A stretch of 64,000 bases of DNA, taken from the sequence record PP400786; one strand, written 5' to 3'. Made by a program: the position numbers and the translations under genes. The notes beneath the pieces are model-generated. The model saw only the letters and a program-made list of their open reading frames with translations, had not been told where the DNA came from and searched no databases. Source of the DNA: Escherichia phage FL12. Shown one piece after another: positions 492 to 53,620 of this stretch; positions within the stretch are counted from its first letter, which is position 1, and every line of letters starts with the position of its first letter.

Positions 492-841
492 TTAGAAAGG
501 TCCTGGATGTCTTCTGCGAACTTGTTGAAGGAGTTGTTGATTTGTTTTTCAACCAATCCTGGCTTATGAGCCACCACATCCGCCTTCTTTGCGTCTTTGC
601 GCAGTTTTTCATTTTCACGCTCAATAGCAGCAATTGCCTCACGATTTTTATTATTCATCGCATCAATATAATTATACTGAATTCGCAAATTATTTAATGC
701 TAAGGCGTTTTCATTGGCCGTTTTTGTAATTTCTACAACAGACGTTTCTAATCTTTCTACCTTATTTTTTAAAATAATAGATGTTCCGCCTAATGCTATT
801 ACAATTAATAGCAAACCTGCTGTCGTATTACTTAATTGCAT
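488..841 (-). CDS. hypothetical membrane-anchored protein
   Basis: 117-aa ORF; N-terminal hydrophobic helix then charged helical region; coupled to neighbours. Confidence 0.5.
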   Translation of the reverse strand: MQLSNTTAGLLLIVIALGGTSIILKNKVERLETSVVEITKTANENALALNNLRIQYNYIDAMNNKNREAIAAIERENEKLRKDAKKADVVAHKPGLVEKQINNSFNKFAEDIQDLSK

Positions 842-1338
842 AAAGTTTTAATAACCTCTACAATATCGTCTTGAGAAAGACCGTTAATTAAAATATGATG
901 TTCAGCCGGAGATTTAGAAATTTTAAAGCATGCCGCAACATCTTCTGCCATATCTGATGCACTACGATTTGGATTACTAATTCCAAGACGATGCTTTCCA
1001 GTCAAAGGATTAACGATGATATAGCATTTACAGCTATTGATATGAACATTAGGTTGAGTCTGATTAATGAATACTTCGCACTCATACTTAGCGAGTTGAT
1101 TTTCTAAAAAGACTTTCATCTCCTCAACCGCATCAGGAAGCATATCACGGGCTTGCTCAAGACGACGATTTCGATATTCTTTAATGGTCGTTTTCCGCTT
1201 GACTTGCTTAGCTAAATCTTTCTTAAGATCGGTGATATATCCAACTCGACGATTTCCTTTGAATACAGAAATCCCATCTGTAGTATCACCGTATGCTTCA
1301 ACGACCATTTCAGTAGTAATAAGCTGTAAATCCATCAT
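832..1338 (-). CDS. alc: Alc, inhibitor of host transcription on cytosine-containing DNA
   Basis: 168-aa ORF directly downstream of rnlA as in T4; size and sequence recalled as T4 Alc. Confidence 0.75.
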   Translation of the reverse strand: MMDLQLITTEMVVEAYGDTTDGISVFKGNRRVGYITDLKKDLAKQVKRKTTIKEYRNRRLEQARDMLPDAVEEMKVFLENQLAKYECEVFINQTQPNVHINSCKCYIIVNPLTGKHRLGISNPNRSASDMAEDVAACFKISKSPAEHHILINGLSQDDIVEVIKTLCN

Positions 1339-1399
1339 AAAGTCCTCATGTTATGTCAGTAAGACTACTATAACACAACATGAGGGACTTGTAAACAGC

Positions 1400-2987
<1,588 letters not shown>

Positions 2988-3014: not shown

Positions 3015-3516
3015 TTAAAAGTATTTTTTAAAACTCATCATAACTTTATCATCAACATCATTATCAATCTGTGCAACAAGGTAAGATGACAGTTCTACTT
3101 CTTGTGGCGCGGATTGAACATTATCAGAATTAAGATATTCACGAATCCAAGGATACGGATGTTTAACCGGAGCATCGGTAATTGGGCATGGAAGACCACA
3201 CTGTTTCATACGAGATACAGTTAAGTAATCAATAAAGCTCCACATGCTATTTGTATTTAATCCAGGAACATCACCATCTTTAAATAAATGAACTGCCCAA
3301 TCTTTTTCTTGGCGGTTAACTTCCATGAAAATATCAACTGCTTCTTGTTCACACTCTTGAGCAATTTTAACCCATTCATCACCATCAGTGCCGGATTGAA
3401 GTTGACGAATAATATATTGAGTGCCTTTAAGATGAAGCTGCTCATCACGAGCAATGAACTTCATAATCTTGGCATTACCTTCCATGATTTCCATGTTCTT
3501 ATGGAAGTTAAAGGTA
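3015..3516 (-). CDS. nrdB: ribonucleotide reductase beta subunit, exon 2
   Basis: ...TFNFHKNMEIMEGNAKIMKFIARDEQLHL... is the conserved R2 region that follows ...FYVSFAC; splice acceptor inferred. Confidence 0.7.
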
Positions 3517-6391: not shown

Positions 6392-7381
6392 TCATAATTT
6401 ACAGGATGAACAATCTTCAGCTTTTGGAGTTTCTATTTCATAATCATCAGTACCAGAACCATCACGGGTATTATGATAATAGAAATTTTTAATGCCATAA
6501 TACCATCCGTATAGCATGTCATCAATCATTATTGACATTGGAACCTTTCCTTTTGGAAAAATCTGCGGGTCATAATATGTATTCGCTGAAGCTGATTGAC
6601 ATACCCATTTCAGCATAATAGCTACCTGCGTAAGATAAGGTTTATTACCTTTCTTAGCTAATTTCCATGTATAGTCGTAAAGGTCTATGTTATGCTCAAT
6701 ATTGGGCACGACTTGATTAAAGGAGCCCTCTTTTGATTCTTTAACAGAGACTGGTCCACGTGGAGGCTCGATACCGTTTGTACTGTTAGAAACTTGGGAA
6801 GATGACTCACATGGCATAAGTGCTGATAATGTGCTATTACGGATGCCAAAGAGCTTAAGGTCTTCCCGCAGCGCCGACCAATCACAAACGTATTTTGGAG
6901 CTGCGATTTGGTCAATCTTTTTATTGTACCAGTCGATAGGTAATTCGCCTCGAGACCAACGAGTGTCTGAATAATATTCGCAAGGTCCTTTTTCTTTGGC
7001 GAGCTTAATGGATGCTTTAATGAGTCCATACTGTAATCTCTCAAATAGTTCATGTGTTAAATCGTTAGCATCTTCATAAGAAGCAAAGTTACTTGCCAGC
7101 CAAGCTGCATAGTTGGTAACACCTACACCAAGATTTCGACGCTTTTTAGCTTTTTCTGCTTCAGGAACTGGATATCCTTGGTAATCCAAAAGATTATCAA
7201 GAGCACGAACTTGAACTTCTGCCAATTCATTAATTTTATCTTGGTCTTGCCAGTCAAAATTATCCAGTACGAATGCGCTAAGGGTACAAAGCCCCACTTC
7301 TCCCTTGTTTTCAATAACTTCTATTGTAGTATACTCATCATCTTCGTAAAATTCATCTACAAATTCATAATCAATATTCAT
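6392..7381 (-). CDS. nrdA: ribonucleotide reductase alpha subunit, C-terminal fragment
   Basis: ...GLCTLSAF...LSALMPCESSSQ...NTRDGSG...CSSCKL, matching the C-terminal third of class Ia R1. Confidence 0.85.
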   Translation of the reverse strand: MNIDYEFVDEFYEDDEYTTIEVIENKGEVGLCTLSAFVLDNFDWQDQDKINELAEVQVRALDNLLDYQGYPVPEAEKAKKRRNLGVGVTNYAAWLASNFASYEDANDLTHELFERLQYGLIKASIKLAKEKGPCEYYSDTRWSRGELPIDWYNKKIDQIAAPKYVCDWSALREDLKLFGIRNSTLSALMPCESSSQVSNSTNGIEPPRGPVSVKESKEGSFNQVVPNIEHNIDLYDYTWKLAKKGNKPYLTQVAIMLKWVCQSASANTYYDPQIFPKGKVPMSIMIDDMLYGWYYGIKNFYYHNTRDGSGTDDYEIETPKAEDCSSCKL

Positions 7382-8081
7382 TTAATTCTTTTACCTTTTT
7401 TCTAGTAATTCCTAAAGCTTTAGATGCTCGATGTATTGATTGATATTCTATACCGTTTATTTTTACAGCAATTAAGTTATGGGGTTTTAATCCCTTTGGA
7501 TGAGGTTTACTGACGAAAACTAAATTATCAAGCTCTGAAATCTTATCCAATTTCTTACACTTAAATCCTTTGTGATGCGACCGTTTACCTTTACAAACGG
7601 CTGACATTGCAGATGGATTTAAATTATGCTCTTTACAAAATTCGTTAAGACCTCGATGAATTTCCTCATGACCATCAGGAAATGTAAACACCCAAGATGT
7701 TTGAAGTCGAGATTTAACTTCTGGAGACATAGGAATACCTTTGTTCCAAGCTGGTTTGCCTTTATTATTTTCAGATACAGAAATAGCCAATTTTCTTCTA
7801 AGCCACCCATGGCGTTTATTGGTGTTCTTTCGTTCAATATTATCTTTAGAATAAACACACATCATATTAGCGGCAAATATCAATTTATGATTATTTGGAT
7901 ATATCTTTACTAATAATTGATGAGCTATGTAATGCTCTTCTGGCGTCAAATCTACCAGGTTTTCCTTTGTATCAGAACCACCAATACACAGAGGTATAAT
8001 ATGGTGTGATTCGGTATAGCAATCTAATTTTCTATTCTTAGCTTTAGAAATAAGGTTATTGTAAATTTTAAAATAATCCAT
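7371..8081 (-). CDS. HNH homing endonuclease inserted within nrdA
   Basis: 236-aa ORF with ESHHIIPLCIGGSDTKENLVDLTPEEHYIAH motif; stop overlaps the start region of the downstream nrdA fragment. Confidence 0.8.
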   Translation of the reverse strand: MDYFKIYNNLISKAKNRKLDCYTESHHIIPLCIGGSDTKENLVDLTPEEHYIAHQLLVKIYPNNHKLIFAANMMCVYSKDNIERKNTNKRHGWLRRKLAISVSENNKGKPAWNKGIPMSPEVKSRLQTSWVFTFPDGHEEIHRGLNEFCKEHNLNPSAMSAVCKGKRSHHKGFKCKKLDKISELDNLVFVSKPHPKGLKPHNLIAVKINGIEYQSIHRASKALGITRKKVKELNEY

Positions 8082-8126
8082 AACTTTTCCTCTTGTTATG
8101 GATTATTTATTAACGGTCTGTGTACT

Positions 8127-16180: not shown

Positions 16181-19100
16181 ATGGCCGAGATTAAAAGAAA
16201 GTTCAGAGCAGAAGATGGTCTGGACGCAGGTGGTGATAAAATAATCAACGTAGCTTTAGCTGATCGTACCGTAGGAACTGACGGTGTTAACGTTGATTAC
16301 CTAATTCAAGAAAACACAGTTCAACAATACGATCCAACTCGTGGATATTTAAAAGATTTTGTAATCATTTATGATAACCGCTTTTGGGCTGCTATAAATG
16401 ATATTCCAAAACCGGCAGGAGCTTTTAATAGCGGACGCTGGAGAGCATTACGTACCGATGCTAACTGGATTACAGTCTCATCTGGTTCATATCAATTAAA
16501 ATCAGGTGAAGCTATTTCGGTTAACACTGCAGCTGGTAATGGTATTACATTTACTTTACCATCTACTCCAATTGACGGTGATACTATCGTTCTCCAAGAC
16601 ATTGGAGGAAAACCTGGAGTTAATCAAGTTTTAATTGTAGCTCCAGTGCAAAGTATTGTAAACTTCAGAGGCGAGCAAGTACGTTCAGTACTAATGACTC
16701 ATCCAAAGTCACAGTTAGTTTTAATTTTTAGTAATCGTCTGTGGCAAATGTATGTAGCTGATTATAGTAGAGAAGCTGTAGTTGTAACACCAGCGAATAC
16801 TTATCAAGCGCAATCCAACGATTTTATCGTACGTAGATTTACTTCTGCTGCACCGATAAATATTAAACTTCCGAGATTTGCTAATCATGGCGATATTATT
16901 AATTTCGTTGATTTAGATAAACTGAATCCACTTTATCATACAATTGTTACTACATACGATGAAACGACTTCAGTACAAGAAGTTGGAACTCATTCCATTG
17001 AAGGCCGTACATCTATTGACGGTTTCTTGATGTATGATGATAATGAGAAATTGTGGAGATTGTTTGACGGGGATAGTAAAGCGCGTTTACGCATTATAAC
17101 GACTAATTCTAATATTCGTCCAAATGAAGAAGTTATGGTATTTGGTGCGAATAACGGAACAACTCAAACAATTGAGCTTAAGCTTCCAACTAATATTTCT
17201 GTTGGTGATACTGTTAAAATTTCCATGAATTACATGAGAAAAGGACAAACAGTTAAAATCAAAGCTGCTGATGAAGATAAAATTGCTTCTTCAGTTCAAT
17301 TGCTGCAATTCCCAAAACGCTCAGAATATCCGCCTGAAGCTGAGTGGGTTACAGTCCAAGAATTAGTTTTTAATGGTGAAACTAATTATGTTCCAGTTTT
17401 AGAGCTTGCTTATATAGAAGATTCTGATGGAAAATACTGGGTTGTACAGCAAAACGTTCCAACTGTAGAAAGAGTAGATTCTTTAAATGATTCTACTAGA
17501 GCAAGATTAGGCGTAATTGCTTTAGCTACACAAGCTCAAGCAAATGTCGATTTAGAAAATTCTCCACAAAAAGAATTAGCAATTACTCCAGAAACGTTAG
17601 CTAATCGCACTGCTACTGAAACTCGCAGAGGTATTGCAAGAATAGCAACTACTGCTCAAGTGAATCAGAACACCACATTCTCTTTTGCAGATGACCTTAT
17701 CATTACTCCTAAAAAGCTGAATGAAAGAACTGCTACAGAAACTCGTAGAGGTGTCGCAGAAATTGCTACGCAGCAAGAAACTAATACAGGTACTGATGAT
17801 ACTACAATCATTACTCCTAAAAAGCTTCAAGCTCGTCAAGGTTCTGAATCATTATCTGGTATTGTAACTTTTGTATCTACCGCAGGTGCTACTCCAGCTT
17901 CTAGCCGTGAATTAAATGGTACGAATGTTTATAATAAAAACACTAATAATTTAGTTGTTTCACCTAAAGCTTTGGATCAGTATAAAGCTACGCCTACTCA
18001 ACAGGGTGCAGTAATTTTAGCAGTTGAAAGTGAAGTAATTGCTGGACAAAGTCAGCAAGGATGGGCAAATGCTGTTGTAACGCCAGAAACGTTACATAAA
18101 AAGACATCAACTGATGGAAGAATTGGTTTAATTGAAATTGCTACGCAAAGTGAAGTTAATACAGGAACTGATTATACTCGTGCAGTCACTCCTAAAACTT
18201 TAAATGACCGTAGAGCAACTGAAAGTTTAAGTGGTATAGCTGAAATTGCTACACAAGTTGAATTCGACGCAGGCGTCGACGATACTCGTATCTCTACACC
18301 ATTAAAAATTAAAACCAGATTTAATAGTACTGATCGTACTTCTGTTGTTGCTCTATCTGGATTAGTTGAATCAGGAACTCTCTGGGACCATTATACACTT
18401 AATATTCTTGAAGCAAATGAGACACAGCGTGGTACACTTCGTGTGGCTACACAAGTTGAAGCTGCTGCAGGAACATTAGATAATGTTTTAATAACTCCTA
18501 AAAAGCTTTTAGGTACTAAATCTACCGAATCGCAAGAGGGTGTTATTAAAGTTGCAACTCAGTCTGAAGCTGTGGCTGGAACGTCAGCAAATACTGCTAT
18601 ATCTCCAAAAAATTTAAAATGGATTGTGCAGAGTGAACCTTCTTGGAGAGCAACTACTGCGGTAAGAGGGTTTGTTAAAACTTCATCTGGTTCAATTACA
18701 TTCGTTGGTAATGATACAGTCGGTTCTACCCAAGATTTAGAACTATATGAGAAAAATAGCTATGCAGTATCACCATATGAATTAAACCGTGTATTAGCAA
18801 ATTATTTGCCGTTAAAAGCAAAAGCTGCTGATACAAATTTATTGGATGGTCTAGATTCATCTCAGTTCATTCGTAGGGATATTGCACAGACGGTTAATGG
18901 TTCACTAACCTTAACCCAGCAAACGAATCTGAGTGCCCCTCTTGTATCATCTAGTACTGCTACGTTTGGTGGATCAGTTTCGGCAAATAGTACATTAACT
19001 ATTTCTAATACTGGAACGGCAACTCGTCTGATTTTTGAGAAAGGACCTCAAACTGGAACTAACCCAGCACAGACGATGACTATCAGAGTTTGGGGAAATC

Positions 19101-26317: not shown

Positions 26318-26974
26318 ATGGCAGCACCTAGAATATCATTTTCGCCCTCTGATATTCTATTTGGTGTTCTAGATCGCTTGTTCAAAGATAACGCTACCGG
26401 GAAGGTTCTTGCTTCCCGAGTAGCTGTCGTAATTCTTTTGTTTATAATGGCGATTGTTTGGTATAGGGGAGATAGTTTCTTTGAGTACTATAAGCAATCA
26501 AAGTATGAAACATACAGTGAAATTATTGAAAAGGAAAGAAATGCACGCTTTGAATCTGTCGCCCTGGAACAACTCCAGATAGTTCATATATCATCTGAGG
26601 CAGACTTTAGTGCGGTGTATTCTTTCCGCCCTAAAAACTTAAACTATTTTGTTGATATTATAGCATACGAAGGAAAATTACCTTCGACAATAAGTGAAAA
26701 ATCACTTGGAGGATATCCTGTTGATAAAACTATGGATGAATATACAGTTCATTTAAATGGACGTCATTATTATTCCAACTCAAAATTTGCTTTTTTACCA
26801 ACTAAAAAGCCTACTCCCGAAATAAACTACATGTACAGTTGTCCATATTTTAATTTGGATAATATCTATGCTGGAACAATAACAATGTACTGGTATAGAA
26901 ATGATCATATAAGTAATGACCGCCTTGAATCAATATGTGCTCAGGCGGCCAGAATATTAGGAAGGGCTAAATAA
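26318..26974 (+). CDS. t: holin
   Basis: 218-aa ORF MAAPRISFSPSDILFGVLDRLFKDN... with one TM segment. Confidence 0.9.
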   Translation: MAAPRISFSPSDILFGVLDRLFKDNATGKVLASRVAVVILLFIMAIVWYRGDSFFEYYKQSKYETYSEIIEKERNARFESVALEQLQIVHISSEADFSAVYSFRPKNLNYFVDIIAYEGKLPSTISEKSLGGYPVDKTMDEYTVHLNGRHYYSNSKFAFLPTKKPTPEINYMYSCPYFNLDNIYAGTITMYWYRNDHISNDRLESICAQAARILGRAK

Positions 26975-38605: not shown

Positions 38606-40410
38606 TCTTTACGGAGTTCAGGGTCGTTACCCATGAGCATTTCAAATAGTTCTTTCCAATTTTCAGGAAGTTTAACTACGTCGTACACAGGGTTTTGAAT
38701 CATTTCTTTATATTCATCCCGCTGAAGTGAGCCCAATCCCTTGATGTATCGAATACTATGCTTAGGCAGTGTATCTTTAGCTTCTTCATACTCAGCTACA
38801 GTATAAAACCATTTTTGAGTTTTGCCAATTTGTGCAATAATTACAGGCGTTTTAACAAAGCGAATACGTCCTTGTTCAAACAATTCAGGCCAATTACTAA
38901 AGAAAGCAAGCAAAGCCGGATAAATACTTCCAAGTCCGTCATGATCGGCATCGGTCATAATAGCAATATTATGATAATTCAAGTTTTCAGCTTTTTCACC
39001 GAGAACTAATCCAGTGATTGCGCAAATATCAAATAGTTCTTTGTTTTTAAGCATATCTGCATAAGACATACCCCAACTGTTGAGAACTTTACCACGCAAT
39101 GGATAACCACCGTGAAGTTCTTTATCACGAACATCAATAAGATATCCGATAGCAGAATCACCCTCAGTCAAGAAAAGAGTAGTGTCAGCATCTTTACCAC
39201 AAAGATTCGCTTTGATATGTTTATGAACCTTAGCTTTAGAAGCCTTTTTAGCTGCCTTTGTTTCTGCTGCTTTTTCTGCCGCCAATTTACGAGCTAGTGC
39301 AGCTTCAATAATCGGCATTAAAATTGCTTCATTATTCAAAATAGCACGTGAAATCTTTTTAGCATCAAGTTGAATATGACTACGGATTTCACCAAATGGA
39401 GAAGTCAAACGCTCTTTAGTTTGAGAATCAAATCGCATGTTTTTCATATCACGAACAAACATAACGATAGTCAAACATTCTTTGACACGCGCTTTAGTTA
39501 CATCAATTTTGAACTTGCGTTTGATTTGTGGAATAAGGTCTTCACAAATATCATCCATAACACAGTCAATGTGATGGCCACCATTCTTAGTATGAATGTT
39601 ATTCACATAAGTTAATTGACGAAAACCATCCGGTGAACGACCAACCGCAATAGAACAGTTTTCTTGTTCTTGAACGATAGCATGCTCATCATACTGCCGT
39701 GCATATTTCTTAAAATTGCCCTGAACCTTTTTACCATTAAAGGTAAATTGAATATCAGGATAAACAACAGCAAGTGTCTGGAGACGATCCAGTGTAATGT
39801 CAAGATAAACCTGAGACAGCTCATTAGTTTCAAATGACATAAAATCAGGAATGAAAGTAACGCGAGTTCCTTTCCATTTTCCAGGAATATCTTCCCATGA
39901 TTTATTTTCCATGCCGTTTGAACAACGAACTACAATATTATTTTGACCATCGCCAGTTTCACCAACAAACATCACAGAAAAAATGTTTGTCAAACTAGAA
40001 CCAACACCATTCATACCACCGGTGACACGTTCTTTATCATCACCAAAGTTACCACCTGCTTTTGGAATAGTCCATGCAGCAACAGGACCAGGAATTTCTT
40101 CACCGGTAGGTGTTTTAACCATCGCTTGTGGAATACCACGACCGTTATCTTCAACTGTTACTTGATTGTTTTTAATAGTAACATTAATTTTATTTGCGAA
40201 TTTAAACTTAGTACGAATACCTTCATCTACTGAGTTATCGATAATTTCATCAATAAGCTTAACAAGACCAGGTACATACTGAACACTTTCCCATTTACCA
40301 AACAGAAAGCGCTCATGCATTTCATTAGCTGAAGAGCCAATGTACATGCCGCTACGCTTTTTGATATGTTCAATATCGCTCAGAATTTTAATTTCATTCT
40401 TAATCATCAC
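38590..40410 (-). CDS. 39: DNA topoisomerase II large subunit, uninterrupted (T4 39 plus 60 equivalent)
   Basis: 606-aa ORF with GHKL ATPase N-terminus and Toprim C-terminus (...IAIMTDADHDGLGSIYP...) in one frame. Confidence 0.9.
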   Translation of the reverse strand: MMIKNEIKILSDIEHIKKRSGMYIGSSANEMHERFLFGKWESVQYVPGLVKLIDEIIDNSVDEGIRTKFKFANKINVTIKNNQVTVEDNGRGIPQAMVKTPTGEEIPGPVAAWTIPKAGGNFGDDKERVTGGMNGVGSSLTNIFSVMFVGETGDGQNNIVVRCSNGMENKSWEDIPGKWKGTRVTFIPDFMSFETNELSQVYLDITLDRLQTLAVVYPDIQFTFNGKKVQGNFKKYARQYDEHAIVQEQENCSIAVGRSPDGFRQLTYVNNIHTKNGGHHIDCVMDDICEDLIPQIKRKFKIDVTKARVKECLTIVMFVRDMKNMRFDSQTKERLTSPFGEIRSHIQLDAKKISRAILNNEAILMPIIEAALARKLAAEKAAETKAAKKASKAKVHKHIKANLCGKDADTTLFLTEGDSAIGYLIDVRDKELHGGYPLRGKVLNSWGMSYADMLKNKELFDICAITGLVLGEKAENLNYHNIAIMTDADHDGLGSIYPALLAFFSNWPELFEQGRIRFVKTPVIIAQIGKTQKWFYTVAEYEEAKDTLPKHSIRYIKGLGSLQRDEYKEMIQNPVYDVVKLPENWKELFEMLMGNDPELRKDWMLR

Positions 40411-51398: not shown

Positions 51399-51608
51399 TT
51401 AAATTACATGATTATTTATAATAAATTCTCGCGGAACGTTAAAATATCCGATTTTAGTTAATATAACAACATCACCGTTAATAATTACCGGAGAATAATC
51501 TTCTGGAGCATTAAATTTCCAATGGGCTCTAATATTATATCCATCAGAACCAAATGCTCGAGTAGCCGGTCTCCCGGCTTTTTGCCACGCGTAGAAATCA
51601 AATTTCAT
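51399..51608 (-). CDS. hypothetical protein
   Basis: 69-aa ORF. Confidence 0.45.
   Translation of the reverse strand: MKFDFYAWQKAGRPATRAFGSDGYNIRAHWKFNAPEDYSPVIINGDVVILTKIGYFNVPREFIINNHVI
51413..51420 (-). promoter_or_regulatory. late promoter for soc
   Basis: Plus strand tatttata equals TATAAATA on minus strand, about 30 nt upstream of soc ATG. Confidence 0.55.
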
Positions 51609-51805
51609 TTTGAATGCTCTATAATTAATTTTAAGGCTTCTTCGCTGACAAAAATTTCGTCAGGACCTTCTTCTATAACCCAATCAACCATACGAAGTTG
51701 ATTAGTTAAGAGCTCACATACGAGCTCCTTGTTATAATCTTTAAATAGCTGGTTAATACGTTTCTTATGGGCTTTCTTAAGCTGACGCTTATTTAAACGA
51801 GCCAT
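51605..51805 (-). CDS. hypothetical protein
   Basis: 66-aa basic ORF. Confidence 0.45.
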   Translation of the reverse strand: MARLNKRQLKKAHKKRINQLFKDYNKELVCELLTNQLRMVDWVIEEGPDEIFVSEEALKLIIEHSK

Positions 51806-52323
51806 TAATAACCTCGGTCTTGACGAGCGAAGTTTTCAGCATTTTTCAGGTAATAAAGTTTAAAGATTTCTTCAGCTGACATTCCAAGAGCAATAAATTT
51901 ATTCATGAAAAAGTGAAATTGGTCAATCAGTTCAAATTTAATTTCAAGCTGATCTTCGGGAGATAAATCTTGAATTTTCTTGGATTGCATTTCAGAATAA
52001 CGTTTCTTCCAAGGTTTCCATACAGCAGAAGCTTCTTTTTCACCATTACTCATACCACCAAGAGAAGTATATAGTTCGCGAGTTTCATCTGCGATATAAT
52101 CGTCTTGGTTTCGCAACCAAGCAAGAACTTCTCCTGCGGTTTCAAGTGAATCAGGATGACGATTTGTTTCTGGTTTATCATTAGCCAAACGAATCTGTAA
52201 ATGCCGCTGCATATCAAGCATAACCTGCAGTGGGTCAATATTGTGCATAATATTCTCAGCATATGCACGATTTGCTTTATCAACACCTTCGATCAAATGA
52301 GCACATTCATTAAAGTAAGCCAT
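51805..52323 (-). CDS. 56: dCTP pyrophosphatase (MazG-like)
   Basis: About 172 aa from MAYFNECAHLIEGVDKA...; ...EASAVWKPWK...KLYYLKNAENFARQDRGY; internal Met of track ORF. Confidence 0.8.
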   Translation of the reverse strand: MAYFNECAHLIEGVDKANRAYAENIMHNIDPLQVMLDMQRHLQIRLANDKPETNRHPDSLETAGEVLAWLRNQDDYIADETRELYTSLGGMSNGEKEASAVWKPWKKRYSEMQSKKIQDLSPEDQLEIKFELIDQFHFFMNKFIALGMSAEEIFKLYYLKNAENFARQDRGY

Positions 52324-52358
52324 TATTTTTCCTTTCAATTCATGGGTTAGTAGATTAA

Positions 52359-52384
52359 TTATACAATAAATATATAAAGCAATA
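52359..52384 (-). promoter_or_regulatory. possible MotA-dependent middle promoter for gene 56
   Basis: Minus strand ATTGCTTTA (MotA-box-like), 11-12 nt, TATAAT. Confidence 0.3.
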
Positions 52385-52394
52385 AGGAGGACAT

Positions 52395-52595
52395 ATGGTA
52401 CAAAAATTAATGGCACTTGTTAATGCCATAAAAGGTAATAAAAAACGTATAGCTTTTACTATTTCTGCTATGGTAGGAATTTTACTCTGGAACTTTATTC
52501 TATCACCTGTTGCAATTGCGCATGGTATTAATATTCCAGTAGTTACTCTTGATACATTTGTAGATTTAGCATTTGCTTTAGTTGGGTTGATTTAA
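52395..52595 (+). CDS. small membrane protein on the plus strand
   Basis: 66-aa ORF with two hydrophobic helices; AAGGAGG Shine-Dalgarno 7 nt upstream; convergent with gene 61. Confidence 0.45.
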   Translation: MVQKLMALVNAIKGNKKRIAFTISAMVGILLWNFILSPVAIAHGINIPVVTLDTFVDLAFALVGLI

Positions 52596-53620
52596 ATCTT
52601 AGCATATTTAGATAGCCGCATTTTAGCCATCAACCCCTGGGCAATATTATTTTTCATATATTCCATAATTTGTTCAGGGGTTGCACCTTCCTTTCTAATC
52701 ATATCATTGACATCTTTTGATTTCCAGGGAGATTTATCCCAAAACATAACCCTTTCTCCTGCATCAACTAATTTAGTCATTCGTTTGATAGTGTCAGGGT
52801 GACGAGGTTCATTATCTAAAACCCACACTCGTCTATCTTTAAATGGAACAACTTCTAGGTCTAATTGACCACCTGTAATAGCTATACCATTTTCAATAAA
52901 AAGTGAATCTATAGGTCCTTCTAGAACATATACATCACCATCTTTAACTCGTTCAACTCCATAGATTTTTGTTGCCTCAGGATAAGCTTTGATGGTGATA
53001 TATTTTTGAGGAGCATCTTTCTTTAATGCACGTCCTTGAAAAGACTCAGCTTTTCCATTAGCATTATAAATTGGAATAACAAGACGAGGCTCAGATATTT
53101 CCTTTTTATATGTTCCCGGTGCTATACTATTAACTAATTTAGGCCATTCGGTTGTAAACCAAAGATATTTCCATTTATCCTTTGGAATACAACGAGCTTT
53201 TACGTATTTTATAATTGGGTGGTCTTCCGCCAGTTTATCTAATCTAACACATGACGGAAGAGATTTAATTATTTTCTTCTCAGGTTGTTTAGGAAGTTCT
53301 TTAGGTTTTTCTACTGGACGACTTTTACCTTTTTCTTTTCTTATTTCAAAGATATACTCACGATATAAATCAGGTTCAAACTCCTTTAAATATATTCCGA
53401 TTGGTGCATGATAGTTACAGTTATAACAATGAATATTTCCTTCATTATTATCACCATAATACCATCCACGAGCTTTATTCTGGTCGGTTTTTGAATCTCC
53501 ACAAACAGGGCATCTAAACCGCAATTTAAAAGTTGAACTATTATTTACTTGTGTGAATTTAGGTAAATGAGCTAATGCACGGTATGCAAACTCATTATCA
53601 ATCCAAGGTATTGATGACAT
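52592..53620 (-). CDS. 61: DNA primase
   Basis: 342-aa ORF with zinc ribbon ...FRCPVCGDSKTDQNKARGWYY...HCYNCNYH... and Toprim region. Confidence 0.9.
   Translation of the reverse strand: MSSIPWIDNEFAYRALAHLPKFTQVNNSSTFKLRFRCPVCGDSKTDQNKARGWYYGDNNEGNIHCYNCNYHAPIGIYLKEFEPDLYREYIFEIRKEKGKSRPVEKPKELPKQPEKKIIKSLPSCVRLDKLAEDHPIIKYVKARCIPKDKWKYLWFTTEWPKLVNSIAPGTYKKEISEPRLVIPIYNANGKAESFQGRALKKDAPQKYITIKAYPEATKIYGVERVKDGDVYVLEGPIDSLFIENGIAITGGQLDLEVVPFKDRRVWVLDNEPRHPDTIKRMTKLVDAGERVMFWDKSPWKSKDVNDMIRKEGATPEQIMEYMKNNIAQGLMAKMRLSKYAKI

Follow-up and report, generated by a model that had tools for sequence, protein, structure and literature searches.

One short open reading frame (ORF) in the genome of Escherichia phage FL12 (PP400786) runs against a long block of oppositely oriented genes. 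We asked whether it is a real gene, when it would be transcribed during infection and what kind of protein it would encode. The window, i.e. the whole stretch of DNA analysed, comprised 64,000 nt. Between 36 and 64 kb, all family-supported ORFs of at least 85 aa were on the minus strand, and the ORF was the sole family-supported plus-strand gene within this ~28-kb block. It was intact, opening with ATG and closing with TAA, and its product is MVQKLMALVNAIKGNKKRIAFTISAMVGILLWNFILSPVAIAHGINIPVVTLDTFVDLAFALVGLI. That a small hydrophobic (membrane) protein is encoded here by a lone plus-strand gene among minus-strand genes had been proposed from the DNA letters (the original prediction), and the ORF and family survey of the 36-64 kb region bore this out. 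The remaining plus-strand ORFs of the block all overlapped minus-strand genes; three of them, at 40340, 42203 and 42504, had no match in a PHROG search and were rejected as spurious. The original description of the locus is essentially right, with small corrections given below. The features are collected in Table 1.

Table 1 Coordinates of the features at the locus in the window, and the corresponding upstream boxes in related phages.
Feature	Coordinates	Strand	Basis
66-aa small membrane-protein CDS	52395..52595	+	ORF listing; PHROG 2024 match; 100% identical annotated proteins
Shine-Dalgarno AAGGAGG	52384..52390	+	sequence; 4 nt (ACAT) from ATG
Late promoter box AATAAATA (predicted, gp55 type; the variant of TATAAATA with A at -13)	52365..52372	+	conserved core; 22 nt before ATG
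MotA box TTATTGCTTTA of the gene 56 middle promoter	52375..52385	-	sequence; RB69 homologous site predicted
-10 hexamer TATAAT of the gene 56 middle promoter	52358..52363	-	sequence; alignment with T4, Mosigvirus and Gaprivervirus upstream regions
Gene 56 (dCTPase/dUTPase), divergent neighbour	51805..52323	-	ORF listing; start codon checked
Gene 61 (DNA primase), convergent neighbour	52592..53620	-	ORF listing; annotated in G4507, T4, RB32, RB69
Palindrome GATTTAAATC, source of the TAA stop for both convergent genes	52589..52598	.	sequence
Terminator-like hairpin and T-run inside the first codons of the ORF	52400..52429	-	pattern scan; possible gene 61 terminator
Box, T4: GATAAATA			
Box, Mosigvirus: AATAAATA			
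Box, Gaprivervirus: CATAAATA			
Box, Jiaodavirus: AATAAATA			
Box, Kanagawavirus IME523: perfect TATAAATA			
Box, Gelderland- and Moonvirus: ATTAAATA			

The Shine-Dalgarno sequence named in the original prediction was present, but its spacing to the start codon is 4 nt and not 7 nt. The corresponding gap in the T4 copy of the ORF is 6 nt. The proposed convergence with the primase gene was confirmed, together with the overlap of the stops: the two genes share 4 nt, and their stop codons are interlocked via GATTTAAATC. In phage G4507, which is 99% identical, gene 56 is annotated as nucleoside triphosphate pyrophosphohydrolase and the ORF as "hypothetical protein".

The 2-kb stretch around the ORF matched 554 phage records; several Tequatrovirus genomes, AV122 and G4507 among them, were 99% identical to it, and the window itself is from a Tequatrovirus. 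Proteins 100% identical to the window protein were found in many phage records, e.g. those of Shigella phage Shfl2 and Serratia phage PhiZZ30. A homology search of the 66-aa product, proposed with the original prediction as a check, gave a match to PHROG 2024 ("unknown function") over residues 2-66 (E 1.4e-31, 109 bits), and the same PHROG was matched by all 10 diverse family members. By tblastn, the window protein retrieved 692 phage records in three identity bands: >90% in Tequatrovirus, ~55% in Mosigvirus and ~45-50% in Gaprivervirus. A homolog from a Klebsiella phage, used as a second query, retrieved 169 further records in Jiaoda-, Moon-, Gelderland- and Kanagawavirus. In total, the family comprised ~860 phage records in eight Tevenvirinae genera.

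Family members appear under the names RB69ORF029w (RB69), RB32ORF030w (RB32), gp16.1 (Salmonella phage S16) and bas37_0144 (Bas37). These four agree with the window ORF in size, position and orientation, with nothing substantive different. The position in the family was constant, between the dCTPase gene 56 (or its neighbours) and the primase gene 61 and on the opposite strand, as seen in RB32, RB69, S16, KpV477, Moon, Metamorpho and IME523. At the corresponding site of Karamvirus EnA02, Winklervirus LC53 and Krischvirus KFS-EC, a homolog was not found.

Relatives retrieved by a word-indexed protein search were all at least 91% identical. When 1.8 billion representatives were searched exhaustively with HMMER, the only matches were clusters of Mosigvirus and Gaprivervirus, fragments, and three proteins that are long and repetitive; the latter, with 7-19 matched stretches each, were discounted as hydrophobic low-complexity matches. 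Profile searches of the window protein against Pfam, NCBIfam and PADLOC gave no match. Ten diverse members searched against Pfam produced only noise (COX7B, E 0.028; SNARE, E 0.14), and a PDB sequence-profile search produced one meaningless match (E 9.9). A BFVD fold search returned family members and two weak 63-aa matches (E ~0.1), one of them from Enterobacter phage CIP9, the rest being noise. By these searches, the gene family is narrow. It is already catalogued, and annotated as "hypothetical" in hundreds of genomes. Added here are the evidence that it is protein-coding, its wider range of eight genera, the omission from the T4 reference and the dispensability in transposon data.

Short, AT-rich and missing from the curated T4 reference records, the ORF could be taken for a chance reading frame in an intergenic spacer, annotated by automatic pipelines merely because it is open. 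Its pattern of substitution speaks strongly against this. Nei-Gojobori estimates on 16 distinct nucleotide sequences gave a dN/dS of 0.07-0.14 within Tequatrovirus and Mosigvirus. Between genera, synonymous sites were saturated, with protein identity still at 46-57%. Variable sites at the three codon positions numbered 45/21/56 overall and 7/2/14 within Tequatrovirus, an excess of third-position variation (chi-square, p ~0.0004 and ~0.009, respectively). The products ranged between 63 and 69 aa, and the sole length variant within a genus was an in-frame deletion of three residues. A strong Shine-Dalgarno sequence (AAGGAGG, TAGGAGG or TAAGGAG) was retained in all eight genera, and the frame persisted in them even where identity fell to 22-25%, the residues W, N, P, G and P being invariant. 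We therefore regard a chance origin as hardly credible. Taken together, the substitution pattern and the conserved frame show that the ORF is a genuine protein-coding gene under purifying selection.

In the T4 record NC_000866, nothing is annotated between dam (16846..17625) and gene 61 (17935..18963). This interval holds an intact 66-aa copy of the ORF at 17738..17938 (+), 97% identical to the window protein. The ORF is likewise unannotated in KJ477684 (T4 "wild"). Because it is missing from NC_000866, annotation-based gene-by-gene screens do not score it. There is no entry between dam and 61 in the T4 tables of the HIDEN-SEQ study, where the T4 annotation omits the ORF and the table therefore lacks it, or in those of the DksA RNA-seq study, whose supplement covers annotated genes only. 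For large lytic phages, T4 serves as the reference model, and its curated annotation is without this conserved gene; adding it would close a small gap.

For phage Bas37, HIDEN-SEQ places bas37_0144 at 91945..92145 (+), with a length of 201 nt and a 4-nt overlap with the primase gene (bioRxiv 10.1101/2025.11.20.689424). The size and this overlap mark it as the ortholog of the ORF. Transposon insertions were reported at 20 of its 24 TA sites, with the class "Non-essential", compared with 1 of 27 sites for the Bas37 dCTPase gene, classed "Essential" (bioRxiv 10.1101/2025.11.20.689424). No phenotype was seen for bas37_0144 in three Tn-seq host comparisons (log2FC +0.33, +0.20 and -0.28, adjusted p = 1; bioRxiv 10.1101/2025.11.20.689424). 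The tolerance of the Bas37 ortholog to insertions indicates that growth on laboratory E. coli does not require the gene. In this respect it is an ordinary accessory gene, dispensable in the laboratory.

The timing of transcription was approached through the region between gene 56 and the ORF, which carries signals on both strands. MotA boxes follow the consensus (a/t)(a/t)(a/t)TGCTT(t/c)A and lie ~12 bp upstream of a sigma-70 -10 hexamer. The box TTATTGCTTTA, on the minus strand, is separated by an 11-nt spacer from TATAAT, which lies 34 nt before the gene 56 ATG, and the site has the features of a MotA-dependent middle promoter. The MotA core TGCTTTA ends 2 nt from the Shine-Dalgarno sequence of the ORF, and the extended box overlaps the latter by 2 nt. 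A MotA-type promoter of gene 56 abutting this Shine-Dalgarno sequence had been part of the original prediction and is supported by the sequence. The homologous site in RB69 is the predicted middle promoter Pm:16038, with a score of 21.6 (Nolan et al. 2006).

From this arrangement, coupled regulation of the two divergent transcripts had been suggested. The ORF would then share the MotA-box region with gene 56 and would be expressed early or in the middle phase from a bidirectional control region. The gene 56 MotA box and -10 hexamer do overlap the region upstream of the ORF in the window, in Mosigvirus and in Gaprivervirus, and the high score of Pm:16038 in RB69 fits such a reading. However, the MotA box works in one direction, for the minus strand, and a pattern scan of the plus strand upstream of the ORF found no sigma-70-like promoter (-10/-35 pair). 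The adjacency of the two genes is also variable. Gene 56 is directly beside the ORF in the window, RB32 and RB69, whereas dam lies between them in T4 and Bas37, and a 186-aa gene followed by dam forms the left-hand side in L011. Adjacency is lost in L010 as well, and in all of these the ORF and the heptamer ATAAATA are kept. In T4 and L011 the MotA box is absent beside the ORF, the gene 56 middle promoter of T4 being on the far side of dam. Where both boxes are present, in Mosigvirus and Gaprivervirus, their order differs. The element conserved upstream of the ORF is the core of a late promoter, with the position of the MotA box varying between genera, and the suggestion of coupled regulation was not supported. 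We consider it very unlikely.

Because the arrangement of the MotA and late boxes is not conserved, their overlap looks like compaction and not like a device for co-regulation. In the window, the late box sits within the spacer between the MotA box and the -10 hexamer, on the other strand, and the promoters share part of their DNA, an overlap that speaks for mutually exclusive use and against coupling. Most likely, the predicted middle promoter of gene 56 and the predicted late promoter of the ORF act at different times. Interleaved in this way, they would form a compact example of temporal promoter switching.

The case for a late promoter was built on comparison between phages. Almost the only upstream features shared by the different phages were the strong Shine-Dalgarno sequence and ATAAATA, which was found 14-22 nt upstream of the ATG in six genera. 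In Tequatrovirus, where the left-hand neighbour may be gene 56 (window), dam (T4) or the 186-aa gene and then dam (L011), the similarity of upstream regions with differing neighbours to the window and T4 starts at the box. ATAAATA was depleted in the window, with 20 copies found vs 39.2 ± 5.8 in shuffles. Copies were located 18-34 nt before the real starts of gp34, gp36, holin t, soc, an HNH/NUMOD endonuclease gene and the ORF studied here, and holin t carries the identical AATAAATA variant in a like layout. In T4, TATAAATA at -13 to -6 constitutes the late promoter (PMC2988020, PMC1524935). An A at -13 is its commonest variant (9 of 50 T4 sites; PMC2988020), and position -13 is poorly conserved in T4 relatives (PMC2988020, PMC1524935). 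The T4 early and middle transcripts are all of opposite polarity (PMC2988020).

From the conserved ATAAATA, the lack of a sigma-70-like promoter on the plus strand and the opposite polarity of early and middle transcripts, we infer a gp55-dependent late gene. Most likely, it has its own promoter and is not co-regulated with gene 56, and its transcript is predicted to start near 52378. Like the T4-type gp55-dependent TATAAATA late genes (t, soc, 34 and 36), it has the ATAAATA box before a start led by a Shine-Dalgarno sequence. In contrast to them, it lies alone inside an early/middle region and is convergent with an early gene, and its late expression is a prediction. Several observations count against the late promoter. 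The base at -13 is not T in most genera, and ATTAAATA deviates doubly from the consensus. The box is just 14-16 nt from the ATG in some genera, which would leave a very short leader there. The 31 late-promoter sites listed for RB69 include none upstream of RB69ORF029w (Nolan et al. 2006). For the ORF, a literature search turned up neither a transcript 5' end nor an expression time course, no report from ribosome profiling or proteomics, and no name. We nevertheless regard the predicted late promoter, interleaved with the gene 56 middle promoter, as a well-supported addition to what has been catalogued for this family.

Late transcription from this promoter would not necessarily end with the ORF. 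The stop codons of the convergent genes are interlocked with no terminator between them, and no convincing plus-strand terminator was seen for >600 nt, so the late transcript probably runs antisense into gene 61. At several T4 sites both strands undergo transcription, at different times (PMC2988020). The main product of the locus might then be the RNA itself, a late antisense transcript entering the primase gene, or crossing the gene 56 promoter, that silences early or middle messages, with the ORF being secondary. We judge this highly improbable, since purifying selection on the amino-acid sequence and the conserved Shine-Dalgarno sequence point to selection on the protein itself. Furthermore, a homing-endonuclease gene lies between the ORF and the primase gene in DK-13, and a gap or another gene is found there in KpV477, phage 212 and Metamorpho; the separation in these four phages indicates that the overlap is not required. 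An Rfam search of 51800-53000 gave nothing above noise and no family match. An antisense effect could still occur as a by-product of late transcription.

The protein was modelled by AlphaFold2 from a 17-sequence alignment. The model had a mean pLDDT of 78 and helices at residues 2-12, 16-42 and 52-63. Residues 1-18 have a net charge of +5 in the window protein and of +2 to +3 in distant members. The C-terminal part, after the long helix, has a net charge of 0 to -2 in all members. The core motif W-N-[F/Y]-x4-P-x5-G-x3-P-x4-[D/E] was present in the window protein, with W32, N33, P38, G44 and P48 invariant across the family alignment and position 53 always acidic. The C-terminal helix is 12 residues long and contains K, H and D/E in distant homologs (LDKVIHFIM, LEKVVSFIM), a strong indication that it is amphipathic and not membrane-spanning. 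For RB69ORF029w, one transmembrane segment has been predicted, at residues 21-41 (Nolan et al. 2006).

The best reading of the model and the alignment is a single-pass inner-membrane protein in N-in/C-out orientation. Two hydrophobic helices had been proposed for the product. Two hydrophobic stretches are present, but neither the AlphaFold2 model nor the family supports two membrane spans, and a single transmembrane helix plus a short amphipathic tail suits the whole family better than a pair of membrane helices. In the window protein the C-terminal segment is hydrophobic (mean Kyte-Doolittle 1.78) and may allow a helical-hairpin topology. Of the points added here, the bitopic topology is a likely one as judged from the model.

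A membrane hairpin of two helices would suit a holin or a pinholin-like lysis protein, forming holes at the end of infection. Two database entries already use this name: the 91% identical UniProt entry A0A482MZV5 is called "Holin", and the homolog of Klebsiella phage KP1079 "putative holin". Small size, hydrophobicity, a probable late promoter and two hydrophobic segments, the second with Asp residues, are in line with it. However, no holin family in Pfam, NCBIfam or PHROGs was matched, and the only BFVD match with E <0.001 was the 91%-identical relative labelled "Holin". A hydrophilic, charged C-terminus is missing; the protein ends in ...AFALVGLI and its charged region is N-terminal. The modelled C-terminal helix comprises only 12 residues and is amphipathic in distant homologs. 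Moreover, the flanking genes code for dCTPase and primase, with no lysis gene adjacent, and the phage encodes a T holin elsewhere, at 26318..26974 (Pfam Phage_holin_T, E 7e-118). The tolerated disruption in Bas37 would be unexpected for a sole holin. A holin function is accordingly very improbable in our assessment, and the "holin" labels in databases are unsupported. Compared with T, RI and the pinholin S21 68, the ORF product is likewise a small inner-membrane protein, probably late, and is of pinholin size, but it has no sequence or family match to them, no charged C-terminal domain and no lysis-cassette context. RI combines a cleavable or releasable N-terminal signal-anchor with a globular periplasmic domain, whereas the ORF product has only a tail of ~24 residues.

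Returning to the single-pass topology, the invariant Asn in the middle of the transmembrane helix and the conserved short tail suggest binding to another membrane protein. In general, a buried Asn in a transmembrane helix and a conserved tail point to a membrane-protein partner. By analogy, the small single-pass bacterial membrane regulators MgrB and AcrZ are likewise ~50-70 aa long and N-in, with conserved polar or aromatic residues in or beside the helix. They have no homology to the ORF product, and the presumed action is by binding a larger membrane protein.

With moderate confidence, we favour the view that T-even-type phages carry the ORF as a genuine accessory gene of the RB69ORF029w / PHROG 2024 family, predicted to be late and to encode a bitopic protein, the binding of a partner being speculative. 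Late in infection, RNA polymerase with gp55, gp33 and gp45 would transcribe it from its own promoter AATAAATA (52365-52372), starting near 52378 and continuing past the ORF, antisense to the primase gene. Translation would start from the strong Shine-Dalgarno sequence on a leader of ~17 nt. The protein would cross the inner membrane once, in N-in/C-out orientation. Residues 1-18 would form a basic amphipathic N-terminus and residues 19-42 the transmembrane helix with the invariant W32-N33-[F/Y] and P38. The final ~24 residues would be a periplasmic tail with G44, P48, the acidic position 53 and a short amphipathic helix at the end. Speculatively, the buried Asn and the conserved tail may bind another membrane protein late in infection, possible partners being holin T and antiholin RI of the lysis-timing machinery, or a protein of the envelope or the host membrane.

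A bolder version, which we hold to be unlikely, sees in the product an overlooked late membrane effector, whose Asn and tail would tune lysis timing or inhibition or act on a host envelope protein. Here, the late promoter would be interleaved with an oriA-type gene 56 middle promoter, and the transcript would double as an antisense RNA that helps to shut off primase and dCTPase late. More modestly, the ORF adds a candidate to the late membrane proteins, a poorly understood group.

A further element of the locus is the terminator-like hairpin on the minus strand (Table 1). Read from 52429 to 52400, it has a stem of eight pairs, three of them G-C, followed by TAATTTTTGT. Its fold energy ranged between -8.9 and -13.7 kcal/mol in Tequatrovirus, and it was not conserved in Mosigvirus and Gaprivervirus. 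Since the hairpin is conserved merely where the sequence is nearly identical, it was not used to explain the conservation of the ORF.

The 66-aa small ORF between gene 56 (dCTPase) and gene 61 (primase) has an intact copy in T4, where it lies within an 'empty' gap of 309 bp from dam to gene 61. This copy is annotated neither in the T4 reference (NC_000866) nor in T4 'wild' (KJ477684), and screens based on that annotation therefore miss the small ORF. A further unannotated homolog was found in Enterobacter phage IME523, flanked by a small MazG-like gene on one side and by the gene for primase on the other. Its sequence begins MGTIFYQISKLGNKERKAMIGFLAFDVVVWNFLVVPVAATQGILLPQVTLEH, and a perfect TATAAATA is present upstream, 18 nt from the ATG.

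Table. Coordinates of the features discussed in this section.
Feature	Sequence	Coordinates	Strand	Remarks
Small-ORF copy in T4	L002 (T4 stretch)	3239..3439 (NC_000866 17738..17938)	+	Intact, 66 aa
Small-ORF homolog in phage IME523	L026 (NC_070777)	about 855..1075 (NC_070777 about 16650..16870)	+	Unannotated
Homing-endonuclease gene in phage DK-13	L005	2872..3621		Inserted between small ORF and primase gene
'soc.1/soc.2-like' genes	window	51399..51608 and 51605..51805		PHROGs 5773 and 5782
Terminator-like hairpin	window	52400..52429	-	ATGGCATTAACAAGTGCCAT, then TAATTTTTGT
AATAAATA box	window	8104..8110	-	22 nt upstream of endonuclease gene
HNH/NUMOD-type endonuclease gene, 236 aa	window	7371..8081	-	Pfam I-HmuI_NUMOD-like
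186-aa gene	L011 (IMGVR_UViG_2974787500_000001)	841..1401	-	Directly upstream of dam, abutting it

Gene content around gene 56 was compared between the window (51805..52595) and T4 (L002 1107..3440). T4 carries dam and the homing-endonuclease gene segF, whereas the window phage lacks both, and the interval between gene 56 and soc is occupied instead by the two small 'soc.1/soc.2-like' genes. The breakpoint of the dam insertion or deletion directly adjoins the predicted late-promoter box of the small ORF. On the other side of the small ORF, the homing-endonuclease gene of Escherichia phage DK-13, a Gaprivervirus, separates it from the primase gene; the small ORF thus does not require an overlap of its stop codon with gene 61.

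Some Tequatroviruses encode a 186-aa protein beside dam. Its gene occurs in 164 phage records, with the annotation 'hypothetical protein' in every one, and is absent from the window. Pfam comparison gave weak, sub-threshold similarities to DpnII, a restriction endonuclease specific for GATC (E 0.0045), and also to RE_BanI. The product may act as a nuclease together with the phage Dam methylase.

According to the NC_000866 annotation, the transcript from the T4 gene 56 middle promoter is the primer RNA of the replication origin oriA (rep_origin at 16763, just within gene 56). By homology, the window equivalent of the primer promoter would be the one interleaved with the predicted late promoter of the small ORF (about 52300..52385), so that the control region of this gene may be located on a replication origin. 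The first codons of the small ORF contain, on the gene 61 strand, a terminator-like hairpin, conserved only within Tequatrovirus, which could end primase transcripts ahead of the gene 56 promoter.

Across the whole window, both strands included, the late-promoter core ATAAATA was depleted about two-fold (20 found, with 39.2 ± 5.8 expected from shuffles), compatible with selection against stray late promoters. The position of the AATAAATA box suggests that the 236-aa HNH/NUMOD-type protein is a homing endonuclease expressed late.
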